Positions 15,983-35,325 of a DNA stretch of 64,000 nucleotides are shown piece by piece. Each line of letters starts with the position of its first letter. Within the stretch, counting starts at the first letter, position 1. The translations under genes and the position numbers were made by a program. The stretch is from assembly GCA_016935525.1 (NCBI GenBank), contig JAFGQU010000013.1, forward strand, positions 26,523-90,522, in the 5' to 3' direction. The notes under the pieces were generated by a model. It was given only the letters and a program-made list of their open reading frames with translations, was not told the DNA's origin and searched no databases. The stretch is from Candidatus Omnitrophota bacterium. GTDB lineage: Bacteria; Omnitrophota; Gorgyraeia; Duberdicusellales; 4484-171.

Positions 15983-15993
15983 GAAATAGTTCG

Positions 15994-16076: not shown

Positions 16077-16098
16077 CTAACTCGACTATAGATTAAAT

Positions 16099-17924: not shown

Positions 17925-17930
17925 TGAAAA

Positions 17931-18100
17931 GTTACACGACACACGCCACACGCATGCCTGCTACGCAGGCCGTCACACGTTGCACGACACACGTCACATG
18001 TATTAATTCTTTCTCGACGTGTGACTATGTGACCTTGTGTCCTTGTGACTTGCCGAAGGCATACGTATGACGTGTGACCTTGTGACTATGTGACCTGCGT
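17931..18100. repeat. family-1 intergenic repeat element (GTCACA/TGTGAC octamer arrays), copy A
   Basis: Tandem NGTCACAN octamers followed by tandem NTGTGACN octamers, with embedded hairpins GCCTGCTACGCAGGC and TGCCGAAGGCA. Approximately the reverse complement of copy C at 44245-44408. Confidence 0.7.
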
Positions 18101-18103
18101 GTT

Positions 18104-19117: not shown

Positions 19118-20042
19118 AGGGATTTTAATAAATTTTCCTACGAATATCGGCGACGTGATCCTCTCTCTGCCGCTTCTAGACCGGATCAGGAGCCTTTATC
19201 CGGACCGTCCGATTACGGCGATCGTATCGTCCCGTACCCGCGAATTTTTAGAAGCGCATACGTTCATCGATGAAGTGATCGTGTTTGATAAACATTGGCC
19301 GGGTAAAACCAAATTGCAATTCGCTTTCCGGTTACGGAATAAATTCGATATCGTGGTCGATTTAAAGAATTCGCTTCTTCCTTTTGTGATCGCGCCACGG
19401 TGGCGGACCCGGTTTATCCGGTTTTTTAAACCTACCCAGCATATTACTCACCGTTATCTATCGCTGATCTCAAAACTGGGGTTGCCGGCGGCGACCGTAC
19501 GCGGAGACGTGCGCATCGCGGCCGAAAAAAAGGCCCGCTGGGATGGGTTGAATCTGTCCGGCGCGGTAGGCGTGGGCTGTTCTTCACAGTTTTATCTGAA
19601 ACAGTATCCTTACGAAAACTTAAAACAAGTGATCGAAAGATTGCACGGCCAATATCCGGTCGTGATCTTGGGCGAAGAAAAAGAACGCGGGTTCTACCGT
19701 GATATCCTTGGCCTGCCGGGGGTGAGAGACCTTGTCGGGAAGACTACGTTGACCGATGTGTTTTATATTTTAAAAAATTTCTGCCGGGTTATGGTCGCGG
19801 TCGATTCCAGCCTCATGCATATGGCCGGATACCTTAATGTGCCGGTCATCGGGTTGTTCGGCCCTACCGCGCCGGGCCGGTCCTATCCGCTTTCGGAAAA
19901 ATCGGTAATATTACAGAACACCCATATCATGTGTGTCCCCTGTGACGGTACATTATGTGAGCATGAGAATATATGTATGAATATCGATCCCGAAACGGTA
20001 ATCGGGACGGTAAGAGGTATTATCGATGCTGAAGGAGCCTGA
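19110..20042 (+). CDS. LPS heptosyltransferase (GT9) paralogue
   Basis: ILINFPTNIGDVILSLPLLDRIRSLYP N-terminus, LMHMAGYLNVPVIGLFGPT C-terminal motif. Confidence 0.75.
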   Translation: MNKGILINFPTNIGDVILSLPLLDRIRSLYPDRPITAIVSSRTREFLEAHTFIDEVIVFDKHWPGKTKLQFAFRLRNKFDIVVDLKNSLLPFVIAPRWRTRFIRFFKPTQHITHRYLSLISKLGLPAATVRGDVRIAAEKKARWDGLNLSGAVGVGCSSQFYLKQYPYENLKQVIERLHGQYPVVILGEEKERGFYRDILGLPGVRDLVGKTTLTDVFYILKNFCRVMVAVDSSLMHMAGYLNVPVIGLFGPTAPGRSYPLSEKSVILQNTHIMCVPCDGTLCEHENICMNIDPETVIGTVRGIIDAEGA

Positions 20043-21069
20043 AAAGATCCTCGTGGTACGTACCGACCGGATGGGGGACGTGATCCTGTCTACTCCGGTG
20101 ATTTCGGCGTTACGCCGGCGATATCCCCACGCGTATATCGCGTTTATGTGCCGGCCGTATACCCGGCCGTTACTGGAAGGCAATCCCGGTCTAAACGAAG
20201 TGATCGAGTGTGATAAATCCGGATCTCATAAGGGATTCTGGGGGACAGTACGGTTTATCCGCGCCTTGCGGCGTACACGGTTCGATGTAGCGATCATTCT
20301 TCATCCTACGGTCCGGGTCCATCTGGTCACTTTTTTTGCCGGGATCCCCCGGCGTATCGGGTGGGATAAAAAGAATAGTTTTCTGCTTACCAGAAAAATC
20401 CCTCATCTTAAACAGCAAGGGGAAAAACATGAGTCTCAATATACTTTGGATATTTTACGGGCTCTTGGTATCGAGACGCGAGAAATAAAACCGTTTGTGC
20501 CGGTGAGTGAGGCGGCCCGGATGAACATAGCCAAAAGGCTTCAGGATAAAGGAATAAAAGTAAACGAACCATTCATTGTCGTTCATCCTTCGGCGTCATG
20601 CCCTTCTAAACGCTGGCCACAAGAACATTTCGTGACGTTAGTCAATAAGATCAAAACCGGATTAAGGCTGCCGGTGGTACTGGTGACTTCCCGTGATGAG
20701 AAAGAATTCGGCGGTAAAGTCGCTCAGGTCCCTGAGGTGATCGATCTGAGAGGCGCACTGGAGCTTTCCGAACTTATCGCTCTTATCGAAAAGGCCGCGC
20801 TGTTTATTTCCAACGATTCCGGGCCGGTGCATATCGCAGCAAGCCTGGATGTGCCGGTGATCTCTATCTTCGGCCGGAGTGATCCGGGACTTTCTCCGGA
20901 ACGTTGGAAGCCGCTCGGTGAGCATTCGGTGTTTGTCCATAAAGATGTAGGCTGTCCGGTCTGTTTCGCTCACGATTGCCGAAAAGGATTTTTATGTTTA
21001 GAGTCCATTACTCCGCAGGAAATATTTGCTCTGGTTGAGAAAATCCTTGCCAAACATAAAAAAATCTGA
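20026..21069 (+). CDS. LPS heptosyltransferase (GT9) paralogue
   Basis: ILVVRTDRMGDVILSTPVISALRRRYP and SNDSGPVHIAASLDVPVISIFGRSDP. Confidence 0.8.
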   Translation: MLKEPEKILVVRTDRMGDVILSTPVISALRRRYPHAYIAFMCRPYTRPLLEGNPGLNEVIECDKSGSHKGFWGTVRFIRALRRTRFDVAIILHPTVRVHLVTFFAGIPRRIGWDKKNSFLLTRKIPHLKQQGEKHESQYTLDILRALGIETREIKPFVPVSEAARMNIAKRLQDKGIKVNEPFIVVHPSASCPSKRWPQEHFVTLVNKIKTGLRLPVVLVTSRDEKEFGGKVAQVPEVIDLRGALELSELIALIEKAALFISNDSGPVHIAASLDVPVISIFGRSDPGLSPERWKPLGEHSVFVHKDVGCPVCFAHDCRKGFLCLESITPQEIFALVEKILAKHKKI

Positions 21070-21302: not shown

Positions 21303-22043
21303 TTGCAACCTAATATAACTAGAAAAATGATGACTCCGGAAACATATGTATTGCTCGGTACGGCACTGACGATAGGGTTTATTCATACCCTGTTCGGTCC
21401 GGACCATTATCTTCCTTTTATCGTAATGTCTAAAGCGCGTTCCTGGAGCATGACGAAGACTGCAGTGGTTACGATCCTCTGCGGGATAGGTCATGTGGCA
21501 AGTTCCATCGTTCTGGGATTTGTCGGTATTGCTTTGGGAGTTGCGGTATTCCATTTAGAGAATATCGAATCGGTCCGCGGAGAAGTCGCGGCCTGGCTGT
21601 TTTTAGCGTTCGGATTGGCTTATTTTATCTGGGGTATTCGTCATGTCGTGCGTCGGCGGGGGCATCATCACCGGCATGTCCATTTTGACGGAGAAATCCA
21701 CGATCACCCGCATACTCATCTTAAAGAACACAGCCATGTGCATAGCGGACCGAAAGGCGTGAACCTGACTCCCTGGATCCTGTTCACTATTTTTGTGTTT
21801 GGGCCGTGTGAACCGTTGATCCCGATCTTGATGTATCCGGCGGCGAAAGGGAATATGTTTTTGGTGGCAGCGGTTTCTCTCGTGTTCGGAATCACTACGA
21901 TCACGACGATGCTGGCTATCGTGCTTGCCGTCTCCTACGGGCTCGCGAAACTGCCGATGGGGCGGTTAGAAAGATATTCTCACGCTCTGGCCGGACTCGC
22001 GATTTTTCTAAGCGGCGCGGCGATCAAATTGTTCGGCCTTTAA
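21303..22043 (+). CDS. Ni/Co transporter, RcnA/NicO-like with central His-rich loop
   Basis: Six predicted TM segments. HTLFGPDHY resembles the RcnA HGLEPGHSK motif. His-rich loop RRRGHHHRHVHFDGEIHDHPHTHLKEHSHVHSG. GPCEPLIP resembles RcnA GLIPCP. Confidence 0.6.
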   Translation: MQPNITRKMMTPETYVLLGTALTIGFIHTLFGPDHYLPFIVMSKARSWSMTKTAVVTILCGIGHVASSIVLGFVGIALGVAVFHLENIESVRGEVAAWLFLAFGLAYFIWGIRHVVRRRGHHHRHVHFDGEIHDHPHTHLKEHSHVHSGPKGVNLTPWILFTIFVFGPCEPLIPILMYPAAKGNMFLVAAVSLVFGITTITTMLAIVLAVSYGLAKLPMGRLERYSHALAGLAIFLSGAAIKLFGL

Positions 22044-22153: not shown

Positions 22154-23188
22154 ATGACTCAATACGTAATTCTTAATAAAACCGATCTTGACGAATTTAT
22201 TTCCCGTCTTGCTCAGATTAAAAAGACCGTCGCTCCCGTAAAACGGGGAGTGAAGAATTATGCGTTCGAAGAAGTCACCTCCGGAAAAAACGTCGCCGTA
22301 AAATATATACCTACTATTCTGCCTCCGAAAAAGTATTTCCTGCCTCAGACCGAAACGTTACAGCAGTATGATAAGAGTAAGAAGACCTGGAACGCGGTAA
22401 TGGAGTTTCAGGAAATGATCATATTCGGGGTCCATACCTGCGACCTTGCCGGTATCCAATGTCTTAATATGGCCTTTTCCGATAAACCCAAAGATATCAA
22501 TTATCTTGCCCGTAAGAACAGAATATTGATCATCGGCCTTGAATGTAATGATTATTGCGATGAATACGCGAGCTGTAAGGTGATGGATAACCATATGCCC
22601 AACGGAGGATATGACCTTTTCTTCACCGAACTCGATGACTTTTTTATGGTCCATATCAATACGCTCGAAGGTGAAGATTTGATCGAGAAGACCGGTTTGT
22701 TCAAAGAAGCGAAAGAAGAGCATAAGAAAGCCCTGAAAGCGATGAGGGAAGAGAAAAGGAAACGGTTTAAGGATGAAGTCAATGTGACCCATAACCAGTT
22801 AAAACCGCTATTCGATAAATCGTTCGAAGCGCCGGTGTGGCAGAGTCTCGAGGCGCGCTGTGTTTCCTGCGGAAATTGTACGAATGTCTGTCCTACCTGT
22901 TATTGTTTTGATATCGAAGATGAAATAGACCTGAATCTTACTACGGGCGTGAGAAAACGCCGGTGGGATTCCTGTCAAAACGAACCGTTTGCTCAAGTAG
23001 CCGGCGGTGAGAATTTCCGGGAAGCCCGCGGCGAACGCCAGCGTCACCGGTACCTGCGTAAATTCAAATATCCCGTAGATAAATACAGCCGGTATTTCTG
23101 TACCGGGTGCGGACGATGTTCCCGGACCTGTATGGCTAAGATTAATTTAAAAGAGACCATAAACGAGTTAGCCCAAGGAGCAAAATGA
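22154..23188 (+). CDS. [NiFe] hydrogenase (group 3b-like, sulfhydrogenase-type) beta subunit, 4Fe-4S protein
   Basis: C-terminal ferredoxin-like Cys clusters (CVSCGNCTNVCPTCYC, CTGCGRCSRTC). Position and architecture match HydB of the tetrameric sulfhydrogenase. Confidence 0.7.
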   Translation: MTQYVILNKTDLDEFISRLAQIKKTVAPVKRGVKNYAFEEVTSGKNVAVKYIPTILPPKKYFLPQTETLQQYDKSKKTWNAVMEFQEMIIFGVHTCDLAGIQCLNMAFSDKPKDINYLARKNRILIIGLECNDYCDEYASCKVMDNHMPNGGYDLFFTELDDFFMVHINTLEGEDLIEKTGLFKEAKEEHKKALKAMREEKRKRFKDEVNVTHNQLKPLFDKSFEAPVWQSLEARCVSCGNCTNVCPTCYCFDIEDEIDLNLTTGVRKRRWDSCQNEPFAQVAGGENFREARGERQRHRYLRKFKYPVDKYSRYFCTGCGRCSRTCMAKINLKETINELAQGAK

Positions 23189-24021
23189 AAAGAGTTACCT
23201 TAAAAGAATCGGCGTATAACGTAAAGACCGGGAAGATCCTTGTCGCAAAAATGCTTACCGCCCAGGAGAAATATTTTAAGATCGCTCTAGCCGGAGGTGA
23301 GAGCCTCGACCATGAGCCGGGACAGTTCGTGATGGTAGCGGTTCCGGGGGTGGGTGAGGCGCCGATTTCGGTCTCTTCTTCGCCTACGATCAGAGGGTAT
23401 TTTGAATTGGTCGTACGTGATGCCGGTAAACTGACTCATGTATTACATCAATTAGAAGCCGGCGATACGGTGGGTATCCGCGGACCGTTCGGCGTGGGAT
23501 TTCCTACCCAGATCTTAGAGGGAAACGACCTGGTGTTTGTTGCCGGAGGGTTGGGGATCGTTCCGTTACGGTCGCTGATCAATTTTGTGATTGATAACCG
23601 CCGTGATTTCGGAAAGGTGAGTATTCTCCTTGGGTGTAAGACTCCTCAAGATATGCTGTTTGGCGATGAGGTCGATCAATGGGAAAAACGGCTTGATGTG
23701 AATTTCAATTGTACCGTCGATAAAGCCGATCCCGATTGGAAAGGAAACGTCGGCTTGATCACTTCGTTGATTCCGGGGGTGACTCTTGATATCGAACGGA
23801 CGTTCGCTATCGTAGTCGGCCCGCCGATCATGTATAAATTCGTCATTGCCGAACTGCTTAAGAAGAACATCCCTGAACGGCAGATCTATCTTTCCCTGGA
23901 GAGGCACATGAAGTGCGGGGTTGGCAAGTGCGGCCATTGTCAGATCGGAGATGTGTATTGCTGTCAGGACGGGCCGGTATTTTCTTATGATAAGATAAAA
24001 AATAATATTGAGGCCTTATAA
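23185..24021 (+). CDS. hydrogenase gamma subunit, FAD/NAD(P)-binding oxidoreductase with 2Fe-2S (PyrK-like)
   Basis: Ferredoxin-reductase fold (GIRGPFGVGF, VAGGLGIVP) and C-terminal CGVGKCGHCQIGDVYCC cluster. Confidence 0.75.
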   Translation: MKRVTLKESAYNVKTGKILVAKMLTAQEKYFKIALAGGESLDHEPGQFVMVAVPGVGEAPISVSSSPTIRGYFELVVRDAGKLTHVLHQLEAGDTVGIRGPFGVGFPTQILEGNDLVFVAGGLGIVPLRSLINFVIDNRRDFGKVSILLGCKTPQDMLFGDEVDQWEKRLDVNFNCTVDKADPDWKGNVGLITSLIPGVTLDIERTFAIVVGPPIMYKFVIAELLKKNIPERQIYLSLERHMKCGVGKCGHCQIGDVYCCQDGPVFSYDKIKNNIEAL

Positions 24022-24023
24022 TC

Positions 24024-24791
24024 ATGAAAAAACCAAAAGTAGCTTTTTTTGATTTTTCTTGTTGTGAAGGATGTCAGTTGCAGGTTGCTAATTTCGGAGA
24101 AGGATTGTTAGATATCTTAAACCTTATTGAGGTCGTAGAGTTTCGTGAAGTAATGTCCGAAAAATGGGAAGGAGATTTTGATGTCGCGATAGTAGAGGGG
24201 AGCATTACGACCCCTCACGGCGTCGAACGGATAAAAAAGATCAGAGACCGCTCTAAAGTATTGATCGCCTACGGGTCCTGTGCGACTATCGGCGGCATCA
24301 ATGGGATGAAAAATAAATTCGATTTAGACGAGATCAAAGAGTATGTATATAAAGACGGCGCAAAATATTTCGAAACGATTCCGACTCGGCCGGTGCATCA
24401 GGTGGTAAAAGTCGATTACTTTGTGCACGGCTGCCCGGTATATCAGCCGGAATTCGTAAAGGTATTGAAATGCGCTTTACAGGGTATTCCGTATACGGTG
24501 CCGGATCATTCGGTCTGTGTGGAATGTAAACTGAACGAAAACGAGTGTATGTATGATAAAGGGCTTACTTGTTTAGGGCCGGTCACCCGGGCCGGATGTA
24601 ATTCCTGGTGTATTAATAACGGGAATATCTGTTACGGATGCCGGGGGATGGTGAGTAATCCTGCGAAAAACGGGCAGATGGATATCCTGGAGAAACATAA
24701 TATCCCGCTTGACTGGGTAGTGAATAAGATCGATATGTACAATAAACCGCGTGAATTAGAGGAGACCGAGACCAATGGCAAGAAACGTTAA
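24024..24791 (+). CDS. [NiFe] hydrogenase small (delta) subunit
   Basis: N-terminal FDFSCCEGCQL (NuoB/HycG-like proximal cluster motif) and additional C-terminal Cys clusters. Confidence 0.8.
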   Translation: MKKPKVAFFDFSCCEGCQLQVANFGEGLLDILNLIEVVEFREVMSEKWEGDFDVAIVEGSITTPHGVERIKKIRDRSKVLIAYGSCATIGGINGMKNKFDLDEIKEYVYKDGAKYFETIPTRPVHQVVKVDYFVHGCPVYQPEFVKVLKCALQGIPYTVPDHSVCVECKLNENECMYDKGLTCLGPVTRAGCNSWCINNGNICYGCRGMVSNPAKNGQMDILEKHNIPLDWVVNKIDMYNKPRELEETETNGKKR

Positions 24792-26100
24792 AGTCAATGT
24801 CGAGTATCTGACCCGGGTCGAAGGGCACGGGAATATCGTCGTAAATGTCAAAGAAGGTAAATTAGAGGAATGCCGTCTTGATATCGTCGAGTCGCCTCGT
24901 TTCTTCGAAGGTATGTTACGGGGACGTTCTATTTTCGAAGCCCAGCATATCACTTCCCGGATCTGCGGGATCTGCGCCTGCGGCCACACTCTGGCTTCGA
25001 TCCAGGCCGCCGAAGATGCTATCGGGTTTATACCGTCAGAGCAGACTACTATGTTGAGAAAATTGCTTCTTCATCAGGAGAATCTTGACAGCCATATCCT
25101 GCATATCTATCTGTTGGTCGCCCCGGACCTGCTGGGGGTAAAAAGTTTTGTTCCGCTTATCGATACTCATAATAAAGTCGTCCGGCGGGCTTTGCGGATG
25201 AAGAAGAGCTGTAACGATGTCTGCGATATCCTGGTCGGCCGTCATGTCCATCCGATCTCGGCTATCGTCGGAGGATTTACCAAATTACCGCGCGAAAAAG
25301 ACCTGGATGCGATGATGGATATTTTGGTCAGTATGCGCGCGGATATGGATGCGACCGTCGAGTTATGTAAAACGTTGAAGTTCCCTCAGTTTGAACGGGA
25401 AACCGAGTATGTTGGGTTAGTCAGCGATGATGATGAATACCCGATGCTCATCGGCGATGTCGGCTCGACTGACGGGAAACGTATGGATAAACATGAGTAT
25501 CGTAAGATCACCAACGAGTTCGTGATGCCGCATTCTTCGGCTAAACACGCCAAATGGAACCGTGAATCGTATATGGTGGGGGCGCTCGCCCGGGTGAATC
25601 TGAACTACAAGAAGCTTCATCCTAAAGCCAAGGCCGTCGCCGATTTCCTGGGGTTACATAAGATCTGTTACAACAGTTTTCTCAATACCGCAGCGCAATT
25701 GGTCGAATGTATCCATTCACTGGAAGAATCGATCGCGATCCTCGAATATTTTAAAAACCATGGCGTCAAGCATGAGGAAGCTCTGGTGGTAGGGTTGAAC
25801 GAAAAAAAGACTATTCCGGTAAAAGCCGGTAACGGTGTCGGCGCGGTGGAGGTGCCTCGCGGGCTCCTTTTCCATAACTATGAAGTTGACGATGACGGTA
25901 AGATCGTCAATGCCAATTGCATTATCCCTACTTCTCAAAACGTCAATAGTATCGAACATGATATGAAAAAACTGGTACCTCAGATCCTTGAGAAGTCCGA
26001 TGAAGAGATCACTCTGATGATGGAGATGCTGGTACGGGCTTATGATCCCTGTATATCGTGTTCGGCCCATTTCCTCGATGTCAAATTCGTTAACCGCTAG
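24775..26100 (+). CDS. [NiFe] hydrogenase large (alpha) subunit
   Basis: N-terminal RICGICACGHT (L1 Ni-binding CxxC) and C-terminal DPCISCSAH followed by a 9-aa extension (protease cleavage site). Confidence 0.9.
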   Translation: MARNVKVNVEYLTRVEGHGNIVVNVKEGKLEECRLDIVESPRFFEGMLRGRSIFEAQHITSRICGICACGHTLASIQAAEDAIGFIPSEQTTMLRKLLLHQENLDSHILHIYLLVAPDLLGVKSFVPLIDTHNKVVRRALRMKKSCNDVCDILVGRHVHPISAIVGGFTKLPREKDLDAMMDILVSMRADMDATVELCKTLKFPQFERETEYVGLVSDDDEYPMLIGDVGSTDGKRMDKHEYRKITNEFVMPHSSAKHAKWNRESYMVGALARVNLNYKKLHPKAKAVADFLGLHKICYNSFLNTAAQLVECIHSLEESIAILEYFKNHGVKHEEALVVGLNEKKTIPVKAGNGVGAVEVPRGLLFHNYEVDDDGKIVNANCIIPTSQNVNSIEHDMKKLVPQILEKSDEEITLMMEMLVRAYDPCISCSAHFLDVKFVNR

Positions 26101-26563
26101 TGTCCTTTCTGCGTTACGCCGGTATCCCGGCCACAATGTTTTTATTACCGTAGGGAACAGTTTACGGAGTGATGACGGTGTGGGGCCGTATATCTCATCG
26201 GTTCTGGAAAATCTCAAAGACCTGAGTGTGATCGCTGCCGGACAGAATCCCGAGAACGTGATCGATAAGGTGGCCGGGTTGCGTCCCGCCCGTATCCTTA
26301 TTATCGATGCGGCTGATTTCGGGAAGAACCCCGGTTATACCCAGATCGTGGACCGTGAACATATCCCCGAGACCAGTGTCAGTACGCATGCGATTTCATT
26401 GAAAGTCATCGCTCATCTTATAGAGGAAGATACCGGCGTGGCTGTGGAATTTCTGGGTATTCAGCCGCAATCGGTCGAGTTGAAAGAAGGGTTATCCCCG
26501 CAGGTAAAAGAGACTGCCGATGCGATTATCGCCGTAATCAGGAAGGAGTTTTCTCATGCATGA
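26078..26563 (+). CDS. hydrogenase maturation endopeptidase (HycI/HyaD family)
   Basis: FITVGNSLRSDDGVGPYI and IIDAADFG motifs. Start is uncertain: ATG 26078 or 26042, either overlapping the large-subunit gene. Confidence 0.7.
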   Translation: MSNSLTASVLSALRRYPGHNVFITVGNSLRSDDGVGPYISSVLENLKDLSVIAAGQNPENVIDKVAGLRPARILIIDAADFGKNPGYTQIVDREHIPETSVSTHAISLKVIAHLIEEDTGVAVEFLGIQPQSVELKEGLSPQVKETADAIIAVIRKEFSHA

Positions 26564-26798
26564 GATGCATTTGGTAAAAGACCTATTTGAAGATGTTTTA
26601 ACCCATGCTCGCAATAACCAGGCCGATAAGGTGACGAAAGTATACCTTAAAATGGGCGAGTTTACCGAGATCAATGAAGAGGTGCTCCGGTTCTTTTTCA
26701 AAGAAAAAGGGGCCCAGACAATATTAGAAGGTGCCGAATTAGTCATCGAAAAAAGCCCGGCCCGCGAATTACGGCTGGTATCGTTTGATTGCGAGTAA
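26556..26798 (+). CDS. hypA: HypA-like nickel-insertion protein, N-terminal fragment lacking the Zn-finger (possible pseudogene)
   Basis: Starts MHEMHL (HypA MHE Ni-binding N-terminus). Ends at ...ELVIEKSPARELRLVSFDCE*, exactly where the first CxxC of the Zn finger should begin. The stop codon abuts the family-2 repeat. Confidence 0.45.
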   Translation: MHEMHLVKDLFEDVLTHARNNQADKVTKVYLKMGEFTEINEEVLRFFFKEKGAQTILEGAELVIEKSPARELRLVSFDCE

Positions 26799-26893
26799 AG
26801 ATGCAGATGATCGCTGATTTTGGATTCACACAGATGATCGCTGATATTATATCTGTGGCAATCTGTGATTCTCTGAATCTGTGATCATCAGCG
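26799..26893. repeat. family-2 intergenic repeat cluster (CAGATGATCGCTGAT / ATCTGTGATCATCAG units), locus E1
   Basis: Two forward units (GCAGATGATCGCTGAT, CACAGATGATCGCTGAT) and three ATCTGTG units in the opposite orientation within 95 nt. Confidence 0.6.
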
Positions 26894-26912
26894 TGAAGGA
26901 GCGAAGCGACGA

Positions 26913-28211
26913 ATGTGTTATGCTATTCCCGGAAAAGTAAAACGGTTCCAAGATAAGTTTGTCATTGTCGATTATTTCGGCGAAGAACGCCGGGCGTATA
27001 ATGAGCTGGATGATCTCTCAATCGGAGACTATATTTACGCTCAGGGCGGTTACGCCATCCAAAAGATAGCATCGGATGAGGCCGAAAGTATATTGATGAC
27101 GTGGAAAGAGACTTTTTTTGAATTACAGGAAGTCGACCTCCAACTTTCCCGGATGGATCTTGAATCTAAAGACCTTTCGCTCCGAGTCGTCGGGCTGCTT
27201 GATAAAGTGAATCACGGGTTTTCTTTAAAAACCGACGAGTTGGAATACATCCTTGGCCTTGAAGATGAAAAAGAAAAAGAGTTTATATGTAAAAATGCGA
27301 ATTTTTTAAGGCAGAAATATCATAAGAACGCCTGTTGTGTGCATGGGATCATCGAGATATCCAACCGGTGCGCCCGGGATTGTCATTATTGCGGTATTTC
27401 TACGTTTAATAATAATCTTATCCGGTATCATATGGACGCGGATGAGATATTCGCGGTCGCTCAAAAAGCCGTCAAAGAATATAGTTTTAAAGCATTGGTC
27501 TTACAGAGCGGTGAAGAGTGCGGGTATAATACCCGTGAATTGGCGGGAGTGATCTCGAAAATCCGCCGTGAATTAGGCGCGTTGGTATTTATCAGTTTTG
27601 GCGAGATATCTCTTGAAGCTCTCGATCAGTATTATCAGGCCGGGGCCAGAGGGATATTGTTGCGGTTTGAGACGTCGAACGAAGGATTATATAACCGTCT
27701 TCATCCCGGAGGAGCATTGGCTAGGCGTATTGATTTGATCCGGGCGGCCGATAAGCGGGGCTATCTGGTCGCAACCGGCGGTCTCATCGGGTTGCCGGGG
27801 GCGACTGCGCATGATATCGTGAACGATGCTTTGTTAGCTAAAGAGCTGAACGCCGAGATGTATTCGTTCGGCCCGTTTATTCCATCGCACGATACGCCGC
27901 TTTCACAATCTTTTTCGGTCTCACCGGATTATATGCGGATGGTCATCGCCCTTATCCGGCTGGTCGATCCTGCGAAAGGGAAAATATTAGTGACTACGGC
28001 ATTTGAAACGTTAGACCCTTTAGCCAGGCGCCAGGGGCTGCTGTGCGGCGCGAATTCGGTTATGCTGAATGTGACTCCCCGCAGGTACCGTCAGCTTTAT
28101 TCGATTTATCCCGGACGGGCTCACCAGTCGCAGTCGATCCCTGAACAGATAGAAGAGACTATTGTATTACTCAAGTCTTTAGGCCGCGCGCCTACGGATC
28201 TGGGTATTTAA
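26913..28211 (+). CDS. hydE: fusion protein: HypC/HupF-like domain (N-terminal) joined to HydE-type radical-SAM maturase
   Basis: N-terminal MCYAIPGKV...VDYFGEERRAYNEL...GDYIYAQGGYAIQKI matches the HypC signature (MC-x-AIP, essential Cys2). From ~aa 95: EISNRCARDCHYCG (CxxxCxxC), YLVATGGLIGLPG, GANSVMLNVTPRRYRQLYSIYPGR match HydE. Confidence 0.7.
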   Translation: MCYAIPGKVKRFQDKFVIVDYFGEERRAYNELDDLSIGDYIYAQGGYAIQKIASDEAESILMTWKETFFELQEVDLQLSRMDLESKDLSLRVVGLLDKVNHGFSLKTDELEYILGLEDEKEKEFICKNANFLRQKYHKNACCVHGIIEISNRCARDCHYCGISTFNNNLIRYHMDADEIFAVAQKAVKEYSFKALVLQSGEECGYNTRELAGVISKIRRELGALVFISFGEISLEALDQYYQAGARGILLRFETSNEGLYNRLHPGGALARRIDLIRAADKRGYLVATGGLIGLPGATAHDIVNDALLAKELNAEMYSFGPFIPSHDTPLSQSFSVSPDYMRMVIALIRLVDPAKGKILVTTAFETLDPLARRQGLLCGANSVMLNVTPRRYRQLYSIYPGRAHQSQSIPEQIEETIVLLKSLGRAPTDLGI

Positions 28212-28322: not shown

Positions 28323-28991
28323 ATGGTAAATAAGAATTATATTATACGTCTTTCTAATTATCGTCACGCTTTGAACCGGTTTAAAACGTTGGGCTTTATT
28401 AAGGTTTTTTCCGACAATCTGGCTGACGCCACCGGGGTGACTTCATCTCAGGTCCGTAAAGATTTTTCGATCTTCGGGATATCCGGGAACAAAAAGGGGG
28501 GGTATCAGGTCGAACTATTATTGGAACGATTAAATGATATCCTCGGTAAAGACCGGCTTCAACGCGTGATCATCGTGGGTGCCGGTAAAATAGGTAAGGC
28601 GCTTATCAATTATAAAGGATTTGAAAAAGACGGCATAAAAGTTGTCGCCGCTTTTGACGTGAATACGGCTGACCGGGTTCCGGTTGAGATCGATGTCCCG
28701 GTGTATCCTCTGGAGAAATTAAAAAATTACGTGAAGAAGAATAACATTGAAATCGGGGTTATCGCCGTACCGGATAACGCGGCTCAAGGGGTAATGGATC
28801 TTCTGGTAGAGTCGGGGATAAAAGGGGTATTGAATTTCGCGCCGATACGGTTACGTTCCGATACCGATACGATCATCAATAACGTGGATCTGCGTTCGGA
28901 ACTGGAAAATCTCGTTTATTTCGTGAACGCGACCGGGAAATCGAAAGCCAGAAATAATGATAAAGGTAAAAAGAATAGAGAAGAGCAATGA
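28323..28991 (+). CDS. rex: redox-sensing transcriptional repressor Rex
   Basis: Winged-helix N-terminus (VTSSQVRKDFSIFG) and Rossmann NADH-binding domain (IIVGAGKIGKAL). 222 aa. Confidence 0.85.
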   Translation: MVNKNYIIRLSNYRHALNRFKTLGFIKVFSDNLADATGVTSSQVRKDFSIFGISGNKKGGYQVELLLERLNDILGKDRLQRVIIVGAGKIGKALINYKGFEKDGIKVVAAFDVNTADRVPVEIDVPVYPLEKLKNYVKKNNIEIGVIAVPDNAAQGVMDLLVESGIKGVLNFAPIRLRSDTDTIINNVDLRSELENLVYFVNATGKSKARNNDKGKKNREEQ

Positions 28992-30490
28992 GTATCACGC
29001 ATAATAAAAAAAACCTGGAAATTTGGATAAAAAACCGTGTACGTCATGACCAGGTCGATAAGTACCTGCATGATCAGAAAGATTTTATCGATGAGGATAA
29101 GATCTTTACCGCGTTAGAAGCCGGGAAATCTCCGGATGCCGGGTATGTGAGAGATATTCTCAAGAAATCTCTGGCTATCGAAACGCTTAATCTTGATGAA
29201 ACGGCGGCCCTTCTCAACGTGACTGATCCGGACTTGTTAGCTGAGATGAGGCAGACCGCCGCAGCGGTGAAAAAGAAAGTGTATGATAACCGGATCGTCA
29301 CGTTCGCGCCTTTGTATCTTTCTAATTTCTGCGTGAACAATTGTCTTTACTGCGGGTTTCGCAGCGATAACATCCTCGCTCGGCGCCGGACGCTTTCAAT
29401 CGACGAGGTAAAGCGGGAAATCGAAGTCCTGGCCGGTACTATCGGGCATAAACGGCTGATCGTCGTGTACGGTGAACATCCTCAAAGTGATATCGATTAT
29501 ATGGTCGATACTATCGCTGCGATCTATGAGGTGAAGGTGAAGACCAAAAAAGGGGTCGGACAGATCCGCCGGGTGAACGTGAATGCCCCGCCGCTTTCGG
29601 TTGAATCGTTACGGTCTTTGAAGGAAGTCGGAATCGGGACCTACCAGGTGTTTCAGGAGACATACCACCACGATACCTACCGCCGCCTTCATCCTCAAGG
29701 TACGATAAAAGGCGATTACCGTTGGCGCCTTTATTGTATGCATCGGGCGTTTGAGGCGGGTATAGATGATGTGGGTATCGGCGTGTTATTCGGGTTGTAT
29801 GACTGGAAATTCGAAGTGCTGGGACTGGTGACTCACGCCCGTATCCTGGAAGCCCATTGCGGGGTAGGCCCGCATACGGTATCGTTTCCGCGGCTGGAAG
29901 AGGCTACGCATATCCCGTTTACGTTACAGAGTAAGTATCGGGTACGTGACGAAGATTTTAAGAAAATAGTGACGGTATTGCGCTTGGCGATCCCTTATAC
30001 CGGAATGATCCTTACCGCCCGGGAAACCGCGTCGATGCGCCGGGAGACTATTGGCTTGGGAGTGACCCAGATCGACGCGTCAACGCGTATCGGTATCGGA
30101 GCCTATAGCGACCGATCAGAAGAACAGGAAGGACGCCGTCAGCAGTTTTTGCTCGGCGATACCCGCAGTTTAGATGAGGTAATCCGTGAACTGGCCCGTG
30201 ACGGGTATATTACCTCGTTCTGTACCGCGGGATATCGTTGCGGACGGACCGGTGAGTGTATCATGGAATTGCTTAAAACCGGTAAAGAAGGACAGTTCTG
30301 TAAATTAAATGCCATCCTTACTTTTCGCGAATGGCTTGACGATTTCGCTTCAAAACCGACCCAGGATATTGGCGAAGAGATCATCAATAAAGAACTTGAT
30401 GAAGTGAAAAAAAACATACCCGGAATGTATCCTCATTTGGTCGAGTATTATGAGCGGGTAGCTCAAGGCGAACGCGACCTCTATTTTTAA
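28988..30490 (+). CDS. hydG: HydG-type radical-SAM protein (tyrosine-lyase family, ThiH/HydG-like)
   Basis: FAPLYLSNFCVNNCLYCGF radical-SAM motif typical of HydG/ThiH. At 500 aa it is HydG-sized, with a C-terminal Cys cluster (FCTAGYRCGRTGEC...FC). Confidence 0.65.
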   Translation: MSITHNKKNLEIWIKNRVRHDQVDKYLHDQKDFIDEDKIFTALEAGKSPDAGYVRDILKKSLAIETLNLDETAALLNVTDPDLLAEMRQTAAAVKKKVYDNRIVTFAPLYLSNFCVNNCLYCGFRSDNILARRRTLSIDEVKREIEVLAGTIGHKRLIVVYGEHPQSDIDYMVDTIAAIYEVKVKTKKGVGQIRRVNVNAPPLSVESLRSLKEVGIGTYQVFQETYHHDTYRRLHPQGTIKGDYRWRLYCMHRAFEAGIDDVGIGVLFGLYDWKFEVLGLVTHARILEAHCGVGPHTVSFPRLEEATHIPFTLQSKYRVRDEDFKKIVTVLRLAIPYTGMILTARETASMRRETIGLGVTQIDASTRIGIGAYSDRSEEQEGRRQQFLLGDTRSLDEVIRELARDGYITSFCTAGYRCGRTGECIMELLKTGKEGQFCKLNAILTFREWLDDFASKPTQDIGEEIINKELDEVKKNIPGMYPHLVEYYERVAQGERDLYF

Positions 30491-30587: not shown

Positions 30588-31559
30588 ATGGAATATTCTC
30601 GTATTGCACAATTGGAACTGCCGGTTTCAAAAATCGGATTAGGGTGCTGGGCGTTCGGCGGCGATAGCTGGTGGGGGCCGCAGAACGATCACGATTCACT
30701 GGAGGTTCTTGATCAGGCATTAAAAAGTGAGATCACTCTGATCGATACCGCGCCGGTATACGGACGGGGCCGGTCGGAAACTATTATCGGGAATTTCTTG
30801 AGAAAACGCAAGGTAAGAGAGAAAGTCATCCTTGCGACAAAACTGGGGCTGGCTTGGGAAGGGCCGAATATCCTTCATGATTTAAGTGAAAAAAGGATGC
30901 GTCAGGAATTGGATGCATCACGCCGGCGTCTTTGTACCGATTATTTCGATATCTATCAGGTCCATTGGCCTGACCCTAACATCCCGATCGGTGAGACCGC
31001 GCAGGTGATGCATGAGTTTTACCAAAAAGGTATTATCAAAGCGGTGGGGGTAAGTAATTATTCCGTGGACCAGATGGAAGAGTTTATGAAATATTGTCCG
31101 GTCCATAGCCTTCAACCGCAATACAGCATGTTTGTCCGTGACATCGAGCATGAGACCGTACCATTTTGTGTGCGGCACAATATCGCTATTTTTGCGTACG
31201 CGCCGCTGTATAGCGGGCTTTTAACGGGAAAATTCTTTTTGAACGGAGAAAAAATACCCGATGATACCAACCGGAAGATGAAGCGGAAAGATCTGGAAGA
31301 ACCGTTATTTTCCGTGAATCGTGCGATACTCCAGGAATGTAAAGAGATAGCGTGTGGGTACGGGAAATCGCTTACCCAGCTGGTGATCAATTGGACCTCT
31401 CATCAAGAAGGGATCAGTTCGGTCCTGGTCGGTTCGCGCAGCCGTACCCAGATATGCGAAAATGCCGCAGGAGCCGGTTGGGAAATCTCCGAAAGTGATC
31501 AGGCAAAGATCGATACTCTCTTGCGGCAACGGCAGGAAAAAATAAAAAGTTTAAGATGA
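30588..31559 (+). CDS. aldo/keto reductase
   Basis: AKR motifs GLGCWAFGG, LIDTAPVYGRGRSE, IKAVGVSNYS. Confidence 0.85.
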   Translation: MEYSRIAQLELPVSKIGLGCWAFGGDSWWGPQNDHDSLEVLDQALKSEITLIDTAPVYGRGRSETIIGNFLRKRKVREKVILATKLGLAWEGPNILHDLSEKRMRQELDASRRRLCTDYFDIYQVHWPDPNIPIGETAQVMHEFYQKGIIKAVGVSNYSVDQMEEFMKYCPVHSLQPQYSMFVRDIEHETVPFCVRHNIAIFAYAPLYSGLLTGKFFLNGEKIPDDTNRKMKRKDLEEPLFSVNRAILQECKEIACGYGKSLTQLVINWTSHQEGISSVLVGSRSRTQICENAAGAGWEISESDQAKIDTLLRQRQEKIKSLR

Positions 31560-32491
31560 ACATCCTCGTTACCGGGGCGACCGGGTTTATCGGCAGGCAT
31601 CTTGTACGGAATTTAAGCCGGCATACCGAGTATACTATTTTTGGTCTTACCCGTAACCTTAAGAGAATATCCCCGCCGGTTTCAAGTAATATCCAGTATC
31701 TTCAGGGCGATATAACCTGCCGGGAATCTCTGGATGTTCTGGCTCATCGGAATTTCGATATCGTATTTCATTGCGCCGCCTGCGTGGAGAATGCTCCGAA
31801 AGAGGCGTTGTATCGTACTAATGTGCTGGGTACAAAAAATATCTGTGAGTGTGCGCTTAGAGCGAGAGTATCGCGCCTGGTCTATACCAGTTCGGTCGCG
31901 GTAATAAGCGGTAATGATCGGGCGCCGTTTACCGAAGACATGCCTTATCGCGCGACAAATCCTTACGGCGATTCGAAGATAGCGGCCGAAAAAATAGTGT
32001 GGGACTATCGTGAGAAAGGGGTCCCGGCAGCTATTGTGCGTCCGCCGATGGTGTACGGAGCCGATGAACCGCATATGTTAGGGATATTGTTGACTTTGCT
32101 CCGCTTGCGGATGTTACCGTTTTTAAACGACGGAGCTCAAGCGTTTCATCTGGCTTATGTGGAAAATGTAGTCGCGGCGTTGACTTTGGCGGCGACCCAT
32201 GAAGGGTTTTTGGAGGGTACTTATTTTGTCGCCGATGAAGACGTGTTGTCATATAAAGAAGTCGTTACCTTTTTATGTGAAGGGTTAGGAGTAAAAGTCC
32301 CCGGCCGACTGCCGCGTATGTTCGATGGCCTGGTTGATGCGGTTCCGTGTATGAAGAAGAAAAAAGACCGGCTTTTAAGGCCGAGACAATACTGTCTTGA
32401 CCGTATCCACGCCCTCGGATTTAAAGCTCCTTATGCGGCGAAAGAGAGCCTCATCCTGAGCGCCCGTAATTTCACTGGTCGAGCGTCGTGA
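31556..32491 (+). CDS. NAD-dependent epimerase/dehydratase (SDR family)
   Basis: ILVTGATGFIGRHLV Rossmann motif and YGDSK catalytic YxxxK. Confidence 0.75.
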   Translation: MNILVTGATGFIGRHLVRNLSRHTEYTIFGLTRNLKRISPPVSSNIQYLQGDITCRESLDVLAHRNFDIVFHCAACVENAPKEALYRTNVLGTKNICECALRARVSRLVYTSSVAVISGNDRAPFTEDMPYRATNPYGDSKIAAEKIVWDYREKGVPAAIVRPPMVYGADEPHMLGILLTLLRLRMLPFLNDGAQAFHLAYVENVVAALTLAATHEGFLEGTYFVADEDVLSYKEVVTFLCEGLGVKVPGRLPRMFDGLVDAVPCMKKKKDRLLRPRQYCLDRIHALGFKAPYAAKESLILSARNFTGRAS

Positions 32492-32576
32492 GTCCTGCCC
32501 GCTCCCGACCTGTCGGGAGGGCTGGCGAGCGTACGTCGAGCGTTTTAGGGAACGAAAAAAAGGAAGAGAAAGATCG

Positions 32577-33188
32577 ATGAGCAAGAAAGTGTTTGCGTTT
32601 GATTTAGGGAGGGTCCTTTTCGATTTCGATATCCGTATCGCTCTGCGGGCTTTGGGCAGTACCAGCGAAATGTCCCAAGAGAAGATACTGGAGGCGATTT
32701 ATTATGAGAATTTCGGAGTCGAGTACGAGAAGGGATTAATCACTAATTTCGAGTTTTATAAAAGATTTTCCGACAAGTTCGGGCTTAAAAATAAATACGA
32801 AGACTTTACTGAAGCCTGGTGCGGCATGTTTTCGCCTAAGAATGAGATGATCGAATTTGTCGCAAAGCTCCGCCGGATGTATCCGCTCTATATGATCTCT
32901 AATATCAGCGATCTGCATTTTGAGTATCTGTTTGAAAAATACCGGTACGTCTTTGATTATTTCCGTGGCCTCGTCCTATCGTTTAAAGAGAGATCGGTCA
33001 AACCGGAGGAGAAGATCTATAAAACCCTTGAGACACTCTGCGGGGTTCCTCGGCAGGATATCATCTATATCGATGACCGCCAGGATCTTATTGAGGCGGC
33101 TGAGGGTATGGGGTTCTGTTCTATCCAATTCAAAGATCTCGCCAGATTAATCGAAGATTTAGAAAAAGCAGGAATTGCTCTTCCTTGA
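32577..33188 (+). CDS. HAD-superfamily hydrolase (putative)
   Basis: HAD-like motifs: FAFDLGRVLFD (motif I variant), MISNIS (II), KPEEK (III), IYIDDRQD (IV). Confidence 0.5.
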   Translation: MSKKVFAFDLGRVLFDFDIRIALRALGSTSEMSQEKILEAIYYENFGVEYEKGLITNFEFYKRFSDKFGLKNKYEDFTEAWCGMFSPKNEMIEFVAKLRRMYPLYMISNISDLHFEYLFEKYRYVFDYFRGLVLSFKERSVKPEEKIYKTLETLCGVPRQDIIYIDDRQDLIEAAEGMGFCSIQFKDLARLIEDLEKAGIALP

Positions 33189-33331
33189 TCAGAAATCCCA
33201 CAATTATTTTAACTTCGTTACACTATAGACCATAGATTAGGCGAGATAACATCTTGTCATTGGAAAAAACGGTTGATATAATAAAAAGAGTACGATTTTT
33301 AAGCAAACATAGAAAATGGAAGGGAGGAAGA

Positions 33332-33715
33332 ATGAAGGTTCCAAATTTACTCGTGTTGTGCGCGTTCATCTTTTCCGGATGTGTGCCGGTGCTGCTGGGA
33401 GCCGGAGCGGTTACCGGGTATATGCTCAGTAATGATTATGCGTTAGGTAATGTGAAGACCGATTACCGTACTTTGTGGGATACGTCTTTAGATACAGTGA
33501 GTACTGCCGAATTCAATATCGTGGAAGCGAACGAATCAAAAGGTATCATTAAAATAAAAGATTCCGATGTCGATGTGACGATCAAGATCGACAGCCTGGC
33601 CGTAGACGAACAACGACTGAAAGTATCTTCGCGGAAATATCTTATCCCGAAACCCGCGTATTCTCAGAAAATATTCTTCCGGATCATTCGTGGGTTAGAT
33701 ATGGAATTAGAGTGA
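33332..33715 (+). CDS. hypothetical lipoprotein
   Basis: MKVPNLLVLCAFIFSGC lipobox after the GGGAGG RBS. No recognisable domain. Confidence 0.5.
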   Translation: MKVPNLLVLCAFIFSGCVPVLLGAGAVTGYMLSNDYALGNVKTDYRTLWDTSLDTVSTAEFNIVEANESKGIIKIKDSDVDVTIKIDSLAVDEQRLKVSSRKYLIPKPAYSQKIFFRIIRGLDMELE

Positions 33716-34470
33716 TCAAAAGATTACTTTTTTTGTGTCTGGTTTTTATCGGATGTAGCTCTCCGGTCGATTATTCCCATATAAAAGTCATCGAGGCCAT
33801 TGACGGGGATACCGTGATGTTAGAGAACCGTCACCTGTTGAGGTATATCGGTATCGATACTCCCGAAACGCGTGTTCGTCAGGATGGACGCTGGATTGAA
33901 CAGCCGGCATTGTATGGCCAGGAGGCCAAATCATTTAACCGTGACCTTGTCGAAGGAAAATACGTCCGGGTCGAGTTCGATCTGGAGTCGCAGGATAAGT
34001 ACGGCCGGCTCCTGGGGTATGTATTTGTAGACGATATGTTTGTGAATGAGAAATTGCTTCGGGAAGGGTACGCGGTATTATATACCTATCCGCCTAATGT
34101 GAAATATGTCGACCGTCTGGTTTCCGCTCAACGTGAAGCCCGTCAGACCAATCGCGGCTTTTGGGGAGCTTATGAAATTATAGCGGCTCAGGATGCGTCG
34201 AAATGGTTCGGGCATATCCGTACGGTACGAGGCCGGGTGCAGAACATCTTTCAGTCGGGTAAAGCGGTATTTTTGAATTTTGGGGATAATTGGCGAGATG
34301 ATTTTACCGTGGTCATCTTTAATAACGCGTTTGAATATTTTTATAAACAAAACATACATCCGGTAACATATTATAAAGGGAAAACGGTCGAGGTGACCGG
34401 GCGGATCCGGGAATATAACGGGCCGGAGATCATAGTCAACAGCCCGCAGGAAATTATAATAATAAAATGA
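33712..34470 (+). CDS. thermonuclease (SNase-like) lipoprotein with C-terminal OB-like domain
   Basis: Lipobox FIGC. SNase catalytic region IDGDTV...RYIGIDTPE...GRLLGYVFVD. Confidence 0.75.
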   Translation: MIKRLLFLCLVFIGCSSPVDYSHIKVIEAIDGDTVMLENRHLLRYIGIDTPETRVRQDGRWIEQPALYGQEAKSFNRDLVEGKYVRVEFDLESQDKYGRLLGYVFVDDMFVNEKLLREGYAVLYTYPPNVKYVDRLVSAQREARQTNRGFWGAYEIIAAQDASKWFGHIRTVRGRVQNIFQSGKAVFLNFGDNWRDDFTVVIFNNAFEYFYKQNIHPVTYYKGKTVEVTGRIREYNGPEIIVNSPQEIIIIK

Positions 34471-34558
34471 TTGTGGTCACACGACACACGTCACAAGGTC
34501 ACACGTAAAGAAAACAGGTGATTTACCTGTGACGTGTGACTATGTGACTTTGTGACCC
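34471..34558. repeat. family-1 repeat element, copy B
   Basis: GGTCACACGACACACGTCACAAGGTCACACG, a 22-nt spacer, then TGTGACGTGTGACTATGTGACTTTGTGACC. Confidence 0.7.
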
Positions 34559-34569
34559 GAATAAAAGGT

Positions 34570-35325
34570 ATGGACCATAAAAATAAATTCATGTTTATGA
34601 TAGGGTTTCGCTTTGTTCTTGCGCTGTCGCTATTTCTGGGGAGCGGCTGCGTGACGGTCTACAACCCGGCTACCCAGCGTAACGAGATGTATTTTATCAG
34701 TGAAGATTCAGAACTCGCTATGGGTAAAAAACTTGCTGATGAGGTGATCAAAGAAAATAAATTGATCGAGGATAACACTGTGGTCTCAGCTTTACTCCAG
34801 GTGGCGCATGAGATCGCGCGGGTGTGCGACCGGAGTAATCTTACCTATCATTTTTATGTGATAGATAATGAAGAGATGAACGCGTTTGCTCTACCCGGGG
34901 GATACATTTTTGTGCATAAGGGGCTGTTCGATAAAGTAAGCCGTGACGAACTCGCATTTGTCCTGGCTCATGAGATCGGACATGTCAGCGCCCGGCATTC
35001 CGTCAAAAGATTGCAGGCGGCGATGGGAGTCAACCTGCTTTTAAACCTCGCGTTCGGAAATAACGCTCAATCTATGCAGCAGGCGTTAGGGATAGTCTAT
35101 AACGTGGTTTCCAAAGGATATTCCCGGCAGGATGAATATTTAGCCGATACCCTGGCAGTAAAATATACTCATCGGGCCGGGTTTGATCCTTATGCCGGGG
35201 TGAGTTTGATGGAGAAGTTACAAAAAGAAGGGGCCCAGGGGCATCCGTTTGTCTTTTTAAACAGCCATCCTAAGTCGTCCGACCGTATCGCGAATATTCA
35301 GGACAAAATCCTTCAAATCCGGTGA
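34570..35325 (+). CDS. M48 family metallopeptidase (lipoprotein)
   Basis: HEIGHVSARH (HExxH) and downstream glutamate. N-terminal signal ending LGSGC. Start set at ATG 34570, just outside the repeat. Confidence 0.8.
   Translation: MDHKNKFMFMIGFRFVLALSLFLGSGCVTVYNPATQRNEMYFISEDSELAMGKKLADEVIKENKLIEDNTVVSALLQVAHEIARVCDRSNLTYHFYVIDNEEMNAFALPGGYIFVHKGLFDKVSRDELAFVLAHEIGHVSARHSVKRLQAAMGVNLLLNLAFGNNAQSMQQALGIVYNVVSKGYSRQDEYLADTLAVKYTHRAGFDPYAGVSLMEKLQKEGAQGHPFVFLNSHPKSSDRIANIQDKILQIR

Follow-up and report, generated by a model that had tools for sequence, protein, structure and literature searches.

A HypC domain fused to a HydE-like radical-SAM enzyme: a candidate maturase of [NiFe] hydrogenases in Omnitrophota and other bacteria

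Algal HydEF is a maturase fusion that belongs to the [FeFe] hydrogenase system, and HydG, a radical S-adenosylmethionine (SAM) tyrosine lyase, is to our knowledge the one enzyme known to make iron-bound CO and CN anaerobically. On the side of the [NiFe] hydrogenases, HypC (or HybG, or HupF) is the chaperone of the Fe(CN)2CO unit, and under oxic conditions CO for the cofactor comes from HypX, an aerobic source that decarbonylates formyl-CoA (PMC12134894). A 2025 review of [NiFe] cofactor biosynthesis, in which a HydG or radical-SAM route is not mentioned, calls the anaerobic source of CO "the most pressing" open question (PMC12134894). Here, we describe a gene in a 64-kb stretch of DNA (the window) from a Candidatus Omnitrophota bacterium (assembly GCA_016935525.1, contig JAFGQU010000013.1, positions 26,523 to 90,522 of the forward strand), whose product joins an N-terminal HypC domain to a HydE-like radical-SAM barrel that we call HydE'. 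On balance, and by a small margin of confidence, we favor the view that this fusion is a dedicated maturase of [NiFe], not [FeFe], hydrogenases, in which a relay from HydG through HydE' to HypC would supply carbonylated iron. In the searchable literature we found no description of a HypC-HydE architecture or of a link between HydG or HydE and [NiFe] maturation; Williams 2021 and Matheus Carnevali 2019 yielded no information about maturases. An earlier note, made on this DNA from its letters alone, had likewise taken the architecture to be undescribed, although it turns out to be common in public sequence data.

Two of the described systems offer partial parallels. Algal HydEF and a bacterial canonical HydE-HydG fusion that we found (P0137) are, like the protein in the window, Rosetta-stone fusions of consecutive maturation enzymes, and HydG forms the C-terminal part of two longer versions of our fusion (P0123 and P0132, described below). 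However, HydEF and P0137 are each confined to one maturation system, whereas the fusion joins a [NiFe] module to an [FeFe] module. The resemblance to HypX is one of role, since the fusion would be an accessory route giving a carbonyl ligand to HypC-borne iron; unlike HypX, to which it is unrelated in sequence and chemistry, it would do so by radical-SAM cleavage of tyrosine, in anaerobes. The gene and the parts of its product are as follows, in window coordinates.

26913..28211, + strand: HypC–HydE' fusion gene, one unbroken 432-codon frame
26913..27104, + strand: HypC domain, residues 1-64, with a PF01455 match, an N-terminal Cys2 and an OB-like β-barrel
27072..27197, + strand: linker conserved in alignments, made of a long helix (residues 54-78, WKETFFELQEVDL) and a variable loop (residues ~79-95)
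27198..28211, + strand: HydE' radical-SAM barrel, residues 96-432, from family and fold matches
27333-27344, + strand: clade signature Cys141-Cys142-Val-His144, in the HydE' barrel
27369-27392, + strand: radical-SAM motif CX3CX2C (C153/C157/C160), within the HydE' barrel

The fusion is real and widespread. Its frame opens with an ATG ~10 nt downstream of a GGAG-type ribosome-binding site and contains no stop and no frameshift. The identical 432-amino-acid (aa) protein, with the same neighbors, is encoded on a 161-kb contig of the NCBI Omnitrophota metagenome-assembled genome (MAG) and in an independent Logan assembly of run SRR13394437. This second assembly, together with hundreds of orthologous fusions, means that the junction is no artefact, and the intact frame leaves no room for two separate open reading frames (ORFs), the concern raised in the earlier note. 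Both domains are present in 118 of the best 120 database clusters (56-78% identity), and a degenerate-pattern scan of metagenome contigs of the Joint Genome Institute (JGI) returned 524 fusion-encoding stretches, so the orthologs whose search had been suggested exist in abundance. A second, deeper branch, with the N terminus MCLTIPAK, occurs in Thermodesulfobacteriota/Deltaproteobacteria, Planctomycetes (among them Ca. Kuenenia and Ca. Wunengus), and Ca. Falkowbacteria; the fusion was also found in WOR-1 (Saganbacteria) and one Pseudomonadota MAG. The hosts overall include Omnitrophota, WOR-1, Thermodesulfobacteriota, anammox Planctomycetes, and members of the Candidate Phyla Radiation (CPR). 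The component families are known, and databases already contain the proteins, under names that mislead: the labels that they carry are "HydE," "HypC family chaperone," "radical SAM protein," and "biotin synthase."

The N-terminal module is a HypC domain by family, motif, and predicted fold. PF01455 (HupF_HypC) matches residues 1-64 with its full profile (47.9 bits for a gathering score of 28.5, E 1.5e-12), bearing out the module that had been claimed; the MCYAIPG start conforms to the MCxxxPG motif, and the domain aligns over its whole length with HypC from T. kodakarensis (2Z1C), Cys2 being kept. Each of 245 fusions has Cys2 and Pro6 and, because the HypC domain is always N-terminal, Cys2 stays at a free N terminus, as in HypC. 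Also like HypC, HybG, and HupF, the module is predicted to form a barrel followed by a C-terminal helix and is encoded beside hypA, hycI, and a large-subunit gene. In contrast to these proteins, it has a tethered radical-SAM enzyme, scores below the cutoff of the NCBIfam HypC family TIGR00074 (37.4 bits, cutoff 48), and has no hypD adjoining it in any of the 71 loci surveyed below (the two genes are neighbors in E. coli). A further difference is a single residue. The conserved His of HypC (H51 in E. coli, H45 in T. kodakarensis) is Gln44 in the window protein, and the position is never His in the 245 fusions (245/245): Gln occupies it in 118/118 proteins of the Omnitrophota type, and Ala, Ile, Thr, or Ser predominate in the second branch. 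Cofactor assembly on HypC-HypD of E. coli requires both C2 and H51, and H51 is implicated in Fe binding there (PMC12134894). Loss of this His in all 245 fusions fits a different iron-loading partner, and the HypC signature recognized by the earlier note holds for Cys2 and the Pfam profile, with His51 lacking.

The remainder of the protein is HydE-like, as had also been proposed. Pfam Radical_SAM matches residues 147-306 (59.7 bits), and the top NCBIfam family is HydE (TIGR03956, 227.2 bits, profile positions 2-317 of 340), which leads PylB (123 bits) and BioB (89 bits) by more than 100 bits and so disposes of a BioB/PylB classification. Residues 108-427 align end to end with the structures of T. 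maritima HydE (PDB 3CIX/7O1T), without large gaps (E 6e-57), and the motifs quoted in the earlier note (MCYAIPG, CX3CX2C, GGLIGLPG, and GANSVMLNVTP) are all present. An AlphaFold2 model built from 50 homologues (mean predicted local distance difference test, pLDDT, of 89; predicted template-modeling score of 0.88) has the two folded domains and the linker that were anticipated: strands within residues 6-52 forming a small β-barrel, a helix at 54-78, a less confident loop, and then the radical-SAM barrel. Its pLDDT is 74-91 in the HypC β-barrel/helix region and 70-72 over residues 61-90, while seven linker positions (W64, E66, F68, F69, L71, D75, and S79) are invariant in two alignments of fusions. 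By Foldseek, the modeled barrel superposes on HydE 3CIX with a root-mean-square deviation (rmsd) of 1.5 Å over 336 columns (target-normalized TM 0.93), and structures of PylB and BioB rank well behind HydE as fold matches. The score of 227.2 is, however, below the TIGR03956 equivalog cutoff of 254.6, which makes the radical-SAM domain HydE-like and not a certified HydE, and the barrel has none of the C-terminal accessory-cluster cysteines.

This shortfall has a phylogenetic counterpart, in that the radical-SAM part of the fusion is a separate paralogous clade and not the [FeFe] HydE of the organism. Six contigs (L026, L032, L035, L039, L046, and L085) encode, besides the fusion, a second, unfused HydE of 344-366 aa that is ~35% identical to the fusion and lies beside HydG and, in three cases, also an [FeFe] hydrogenase. 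The full-length unfused proteins that we scored (L032, L035, and L085) reach 332-370 bits on TIGR03956, above the cutoff that the fusion misses. On L085, genes for HydF (509 bits) and aspartate ammonia-lyase complete the canonical [FeFe] maturation set. The cluster on this contig (3366-10324, 1.4 kb downstream of the fusion) reads AspA-HydF-HydG-(B12-binding radical SAM)-HydE, with a 570-aa B12/radical-SAM gene between hydG and hydE. When the radical-SAM part alone was compared with 1.84 billion cluster representatives, the best ~20 nearly all had an N-terminal extension of ~95 residues, mostly beginning MC[YLI]x[IL]P, and canonical unfused HydE scored lower. A neighbor-joining tree of 134 sequences placed all 44 fused, triple-fused, and signature-bearing (CxHG) unfused sequences in one clade (HydE', bootstrap 59/60), apart from 90 canonical HydE. 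The HydE-type label of the earlier note is right about the closest family and the fold, with the refinement that the domain is not the organism's own [FeFe] maturase.

The clade is also set apart by its residues. Comparing 39 fused with 88 canonical sequences (T. maritima HydE, TmHydE, numbering), we found that the radical-SAM cysteines, E58, V105, Q107, L157, R159 (K/R), E161, R180, T268, T269, and Y306 are kept in both groups, as are M224 and M291, which hold Fe(I)(CO)2(CN)S intermediates according to crystallography and quantum mechanics/molecular mechanics (PMC8855341; PMC11826987). E58, Q107, R159, E161, R180, T268, T269, M224, and M291 are each conserved in 37-39 of the 39 fused sequences. 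With the upper-site residues and the radical cysteines conserved, the substrate-binding and radical machinery look unchanged. The positions that differ are these.

R54: Arg in 88/88 canonical sequences; His144 in 39/39 HydE'
H52: His, Tyr, or Phe in canonical sequences; Cys142 in 39/39 HydE'
V51: Val or Ile in canonical sequences; Cys141 in 33/39 HydE'
T134: Thr in 98% of canonical sequences; Phe226 in 82% of HydE' (otherwise Cys or Tyr)
R155: Arg in 99% of canonical sequences; Gly247 in 90% of HydE' (otherwise Ala)
V289: Val in 91% of canonical sequences; Ser382 in 97% of HydE'

Four residues of the HydE dimerization cavity (R54, T134, R155, and T269) reportedly make contact with the CN ligands (PMC11826987). 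HydE' replaces three of these four (R54H, T134F, and R155G) and keeps T269 alone; its product chamber has lost two positive charges and gained a thiol and an imidazole as putative ligands.

Gene context is a further line of evidence. HydE usually has HydG as a neighbor, and so does the fusion; unlike HydE, the fusion mostly follows [NiFe] and not [FeFe] genes. In the window, it sits within the following cassette.

21303..22043, + strand: His-rich polytopic membrane protein with the loop HHHRHVHFDGEIHDHPHTHLKEHSHVHS, directly upstream of the hydrogenase operon
22154..26100, + strand: four-subunit cytoplasmic [NiFe] hydrogenase of group 3b (sulfhydrogenase) type, from NCBIfam, Pfam, and motifs
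22154-23188, + strand: hydrogenase β subunit (Fer4_22 in the identical gene of L102)
23185-24021, + strand: hydrogenase γ subunit (NAD_binding_1/DHODB_Fe-S_bind in the identical gene of L102)
24024-24791, + strand: hydrogenase small subunit (Oxidored_q6 in the identical gene of L102)
24775-26100, + strand: hydrogenase large subunit (NiFeSe_Hases in the identical gene of L102)
26042..26563, + strand: HycI-type endopeptidase of the [NiFe] large subunit (TIGR00142, 123.5 bits, cutoff 119.1; Pfam HycI)
26556..26798, + strand: short HypA, 80 aa (Pfam HypA, profile positions 1-70 of 112)
26799..26912, no strand: intergenic spacer of 114 nt that holds the fusion's ribosome-binding site, besides direct and inverted repeats resembling an operator
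28323..28991, + strand: Rex-type redox-sensing repressor (Pfam Put_DNA-bind_N and CoA_binding)
28988..30490, + strand: HydG radical-SAM tyrosine lyase (TIGR03955, 460 bits, cutoff 312)

The survey behind this comparison started from ~95 loci, each taken with as much as 10 kb of sequence to either side, whose ORFs were compared with the window proteins, the E. coli Hyp proteins, and co-resident [FeFe] genes; the loci were then collapsed to 71 whose fusions are <90% identical, with 754 kb of flanks. A [NiFe] large subunit is encoded in 48/71 loci, and a large subunit, HycI, or HypA lies within 6 kb upstream in 42 of the 47 loci that have at least 2.5 kb of upstream sequence. HydG is encoded within 10 kb in 38/71, HypA in 31/71, and Rex in 28/71. 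Genes of the [FeFe] system are scarce, namely HydA within 10 kb in 5/71, HydF in 3/71, and canonical HydE in 6/71. HypB was found once (1/71), and HypD, HypE, and HypF in none of the 71 loci (blastp at 1e-5, phmmer at E 0.01, flanks of at most 10 kb either way). The hydrogenase ahead of the cassette varies, being of group 3b or of the Mrp-linked group 4, and the block HycI-HypA80-fusion-Rex-HydG stays constant while the hydrogenase type changes. In L005 (CP070684.1), no hydrogenase adjoins the cassette. A WOR-1 locus (L002) shows that the link between fusion and [NiFe] genes holds in another phylum.

Other architectures, too, link these modules. HypC-HydE'-HydG triple fusions occur in P0123 (906 aa; L095 10001-12721) and P0132 (881 aa; L097 10001-12646), with HydG parts of 607 and 631 bits, respectively. 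On a 589-kb contig, the gene of P0123 comes immediately after those of a group 3b hydrogenase and HycI; that of P0132, with a short HypA nearby, is inserted where a group 3b cluster is split between its γ and small-subunit genes. For an unfused HydE' (P0140), the gene begins 4 nt ahead of the stop codon of the large-subunit gene of a [NiFe] hydrogenase (...DPCMSCAAHFLKVRWNEA*), and HydG comes next. The triple fusions, P0140, and the loci together link HydG, HydE', and HypC to one another and to [NiFe] hydrogenases in several independent arrangements. The coupling to [NiFe] maturation proposed in the earlier note finds support in this context (42/47 loci, triple fusions), and it is a coupling that we, too, infer. 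A further unfused HydE'-HydG pair (L099 4766-7208), with no hydrogenase within the flanking sequence covered, lies on a contig of archaeal appearance, which also encodes a histone-fold protein and an inositol-1-phosphate synthase/CDP-alcohol transferase; archaea may thus be among the hosts of the HydE' clade.

Other features of the window locus deserve comment. The large subunit, for which sulfhydrogenase HydA is the best NCBIfam family (276 bits), has the motifs RICGIC and DPCISCSAH followed by a 9-residue C-terminal extension. The short HypA is the N-terminal MHE nickel-binding domain alone, without the CxxC...CxxC zinc domain. We considered that it might be a truncated pseudogene and rejected this because many loci keep a HypA of 80-84 aa (L005 9751-9993, L010 9647-9889, L013 9753-9998, L097 18951-19205, and others). 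The spacer between hypA and the fusion contains, within 26803-26897, two pairs of direct repeats (CAGATGATCGCTGAT twice and AATCTGTGAT twice) and a 21-nt imperfect inverted repeat in which TTCACACAGATGATCGCTGAT pairs with ATCTGTGATCATCAGCGTGAA; these resemble a putative operator, possibly for the Rex encoded downstream. HydG aligns end to end with TiHydG 4WCX (E 3e-135) and keeps the equivalent of His265, the ligand of the dangler Fe. Its C terminus (residues ~410-445) reads C-x5-C-x19-C (FCTAGYRCGRTGECIM...FCKLNA), with an extra Cys in between, where CX2CX22C is usual. We rejected this motif as the mark of a [NiFe]-specific HydG, because two types of HydG adjoin fusions, one of ~499 aa with C-x5-C-x19-C and one of ~460 aa with the canonical motif, and the variant has already been mentioned for clostridial HydG (PMC9431212). 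Our reading of ORFs of at least 150 aa in the window revealed no [FeFe] hydrogenase, HydF, HypB, HypD, HypE, or HypF. The membrane protein upstream of the operon, which has a weak match to DsbD_2 as its only Pfam hit and homologues adjoining the same cassette in L018 and L044, is a possible Ni/Co transporter. The hydrogenase locus is preceded by lipid A/lipopolysaccharide core genes (KdtA, LpxK, heptosyl-/glycosyltransferases; 9821-21069). Downstream of HydG (30588-35325) are genes for an aldo-keto reductase, an NAD-dependent epimerase, a HAD hydrolase, an SNase-domain protein, and an M48 peptidase, which are syntenic across Omnitrophota whichever hydrogenase type precedes the cassette (L010 13476-18011; L013 13434-16857).

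From the conserved residues and the gene order, we infer a substrate, a mononuclear product, a hand-off, and a target for the fusion. HydG, encoded two genes downstream, would cleave tyrosine and build the [Fe(Cys)(CO)2(CN)] synthon, which is established HydG chemistry. HydE' would bind this synthon in its conserved upper site, where a 5'-deoxyadenosyl radical would strip the cysteine, as it does in HydE. The lower chamber, remodeled by the loss of two cyanide-contacting arginines and a cyanide-contacting threonine and by the arrival of Cys142 and His144, would probably keep a mononuclear Fe-CO/CN unit instead of pairing two Fe(I) into a [2Fe] precursor. The unit would then move to Cys2 of the tethered HypC and, from there, into the apo large subunit of a group 3b or group 4 hydrogenase. 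Finally, the short HypA would add nickel and HycI would cleave the C-terminal tail. In such a scheme, HypD, HypE, and HypF may contribute a second cyanide or may be dispensable.

Several observations weigh against this proposal. The absence of HypD, HypE, and HypF is established only within 10 kb of the fusions. Five of the 47 informative loci (e.g., L005 and L100) lack an upstream [NiFe] gene, and in some hosts a full HydEFG set accompanies [FeFe] hydrogenases that lie a few kilobases downstream. Rex, moreover, typically regulates genes of [FeFe] hydrogenases, and an [FeFe]-related role of the fusion is possible. There is also a mismatch of stoichiometry, the HydG synthon having two CO for one CN and the [NiFe] site one CO for two CN. 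Finally, in the portion of the Seymour 2023 source data available to us, Omnitrophota genome 231, which has a [NiFe] hydrogenase and Mrp, is listed with KEGG orthology (KO) assignments for hypA, hypC, hypD, hypE, and hypF, so a canonical route exists in Omnitrophota; the same portion lists no bioB or thiH KOs for this genome. The same material shows no HypC domain in genome 58, an [FeFe]-only member of the phylum, and the two genomes fit a complementary distribution, with one genome of each kind. We assign a small but real chance to the strongest form of the proposal, namely that HydG and HypC-HydE' are a tyrosine-derived radical-SAM route that builds the Fe-CO/CN unit of [NiFe] hydrogenases without HypD, HypE, and HypF.

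The alternative that survives best, although we consider it doubtful, is that the fusion is bifunctional, its HypC part working for [NiFe] hydrogenases with HypDEF encoded elsewhere and its HydE part for [FeFe] hydrogenases with HydG and HydF, the two having been fused through co-expression. It would account for an intact HydE substrate site with both methionines, for the loci in which both hydrogenase classes lie within 10 kb of the fusion (L006-9, L026, L039, and L046), and for the canonical HypACDEF sets in Omnitrophota, as far as the Seymour 2023 source data go; fusions of one maturase to another are, moreover, known, as in the canonical HydE-HydG P0137. However, a separate canonical HydE scoring above the equivalog cutoff is encoded on fusion contigs, where the fusion is hence not needed as HydE. 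Nor would a bifunctional protein be expected to form a monophyletic clade with fixed changes at the cyanide-contacting residues, to have lost in 245/245 cases the HypC His needed for the HypCD scaffold, or to have HydG joined onto the same chain in [NiFe] operons, and the [FeFe]-only genome 58 does without a HypC domain in the source data at hand.

It is less probable again, and in our view unlikely, that the HypC-like domain is a carrier of Fe(CO)2CN among HydG, HydE, and HydF in assembly of the [FeFe] H-cluster, unrelated to [NiFe] enzymes. A gene found directly behind [NiFe]-specific genes in 42/47 loci, with [FeFe] HydA and HydF so rarely close by and with an unfused member overlapping the stop codon of a [NiFe] large subunit, is hard to reconcile with such a carrier, as is the replacement of the very dimerization-cavity residues that the [2Fe] product needs. 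What speaks for it is that only the [NiFe] genes are more constant companions than HydG (38/71), that loss of His51 shows a departure of the domain from classical HypC behavior, and that Rex and [FeFe] hydrogenases occur near some loci. Against both this and the bifunctional alternative stand the canonical HydE encoded alongside the fusion, the missing His51, the cavity changes, and the [NiFe]-specific neighbors, although hosts with both types of hydrogenase leave each alternative some probability. Unrelated radical-SAM chemistry (BioB, PylB, or ThiH-like) or an assembly/frameshift artefact, to which the JGI label "biotin synthase" on many members and a HydE score under the curated cutoff might have pointed, is effectively refuted by the lead of HydE over PylB and BioB, the rmsd of 1.5 Å to HydE, the conservation of the HydE-specific M224, M291, E161, and R180, and the hundreds of orthologous fusions besides two identical independent assemblies.

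A [NiFe]-dedicated role for the fusion would have consequences on two levels. First, [NiFe] operons and the [NiFe] iron chaperone are linked with HydG and a HydE paralogue, genetically in most loci and covalently in the fusions, which gives a concrete and testable candidate pathway of three or four proteins. Should the route prove to run without HypD, HypE, and HypF, the [NiFe] active site would have another, independent biosynthesis, and the anoxic origin of its CO ligand would be explained, at least for Omnitrophota, WOR-1, Thermodesulfobacteriota, anammox Planctomycetes, and part of the CPR. Second, hundreds of fusion genes are labeled "[FeFe] hydrogenase maturase HydE" or "biotin synthase," and such labels would wrongly imply a capacity for [FeFe] hydrogenases in genomes that may have only [NiFe] enzymes.

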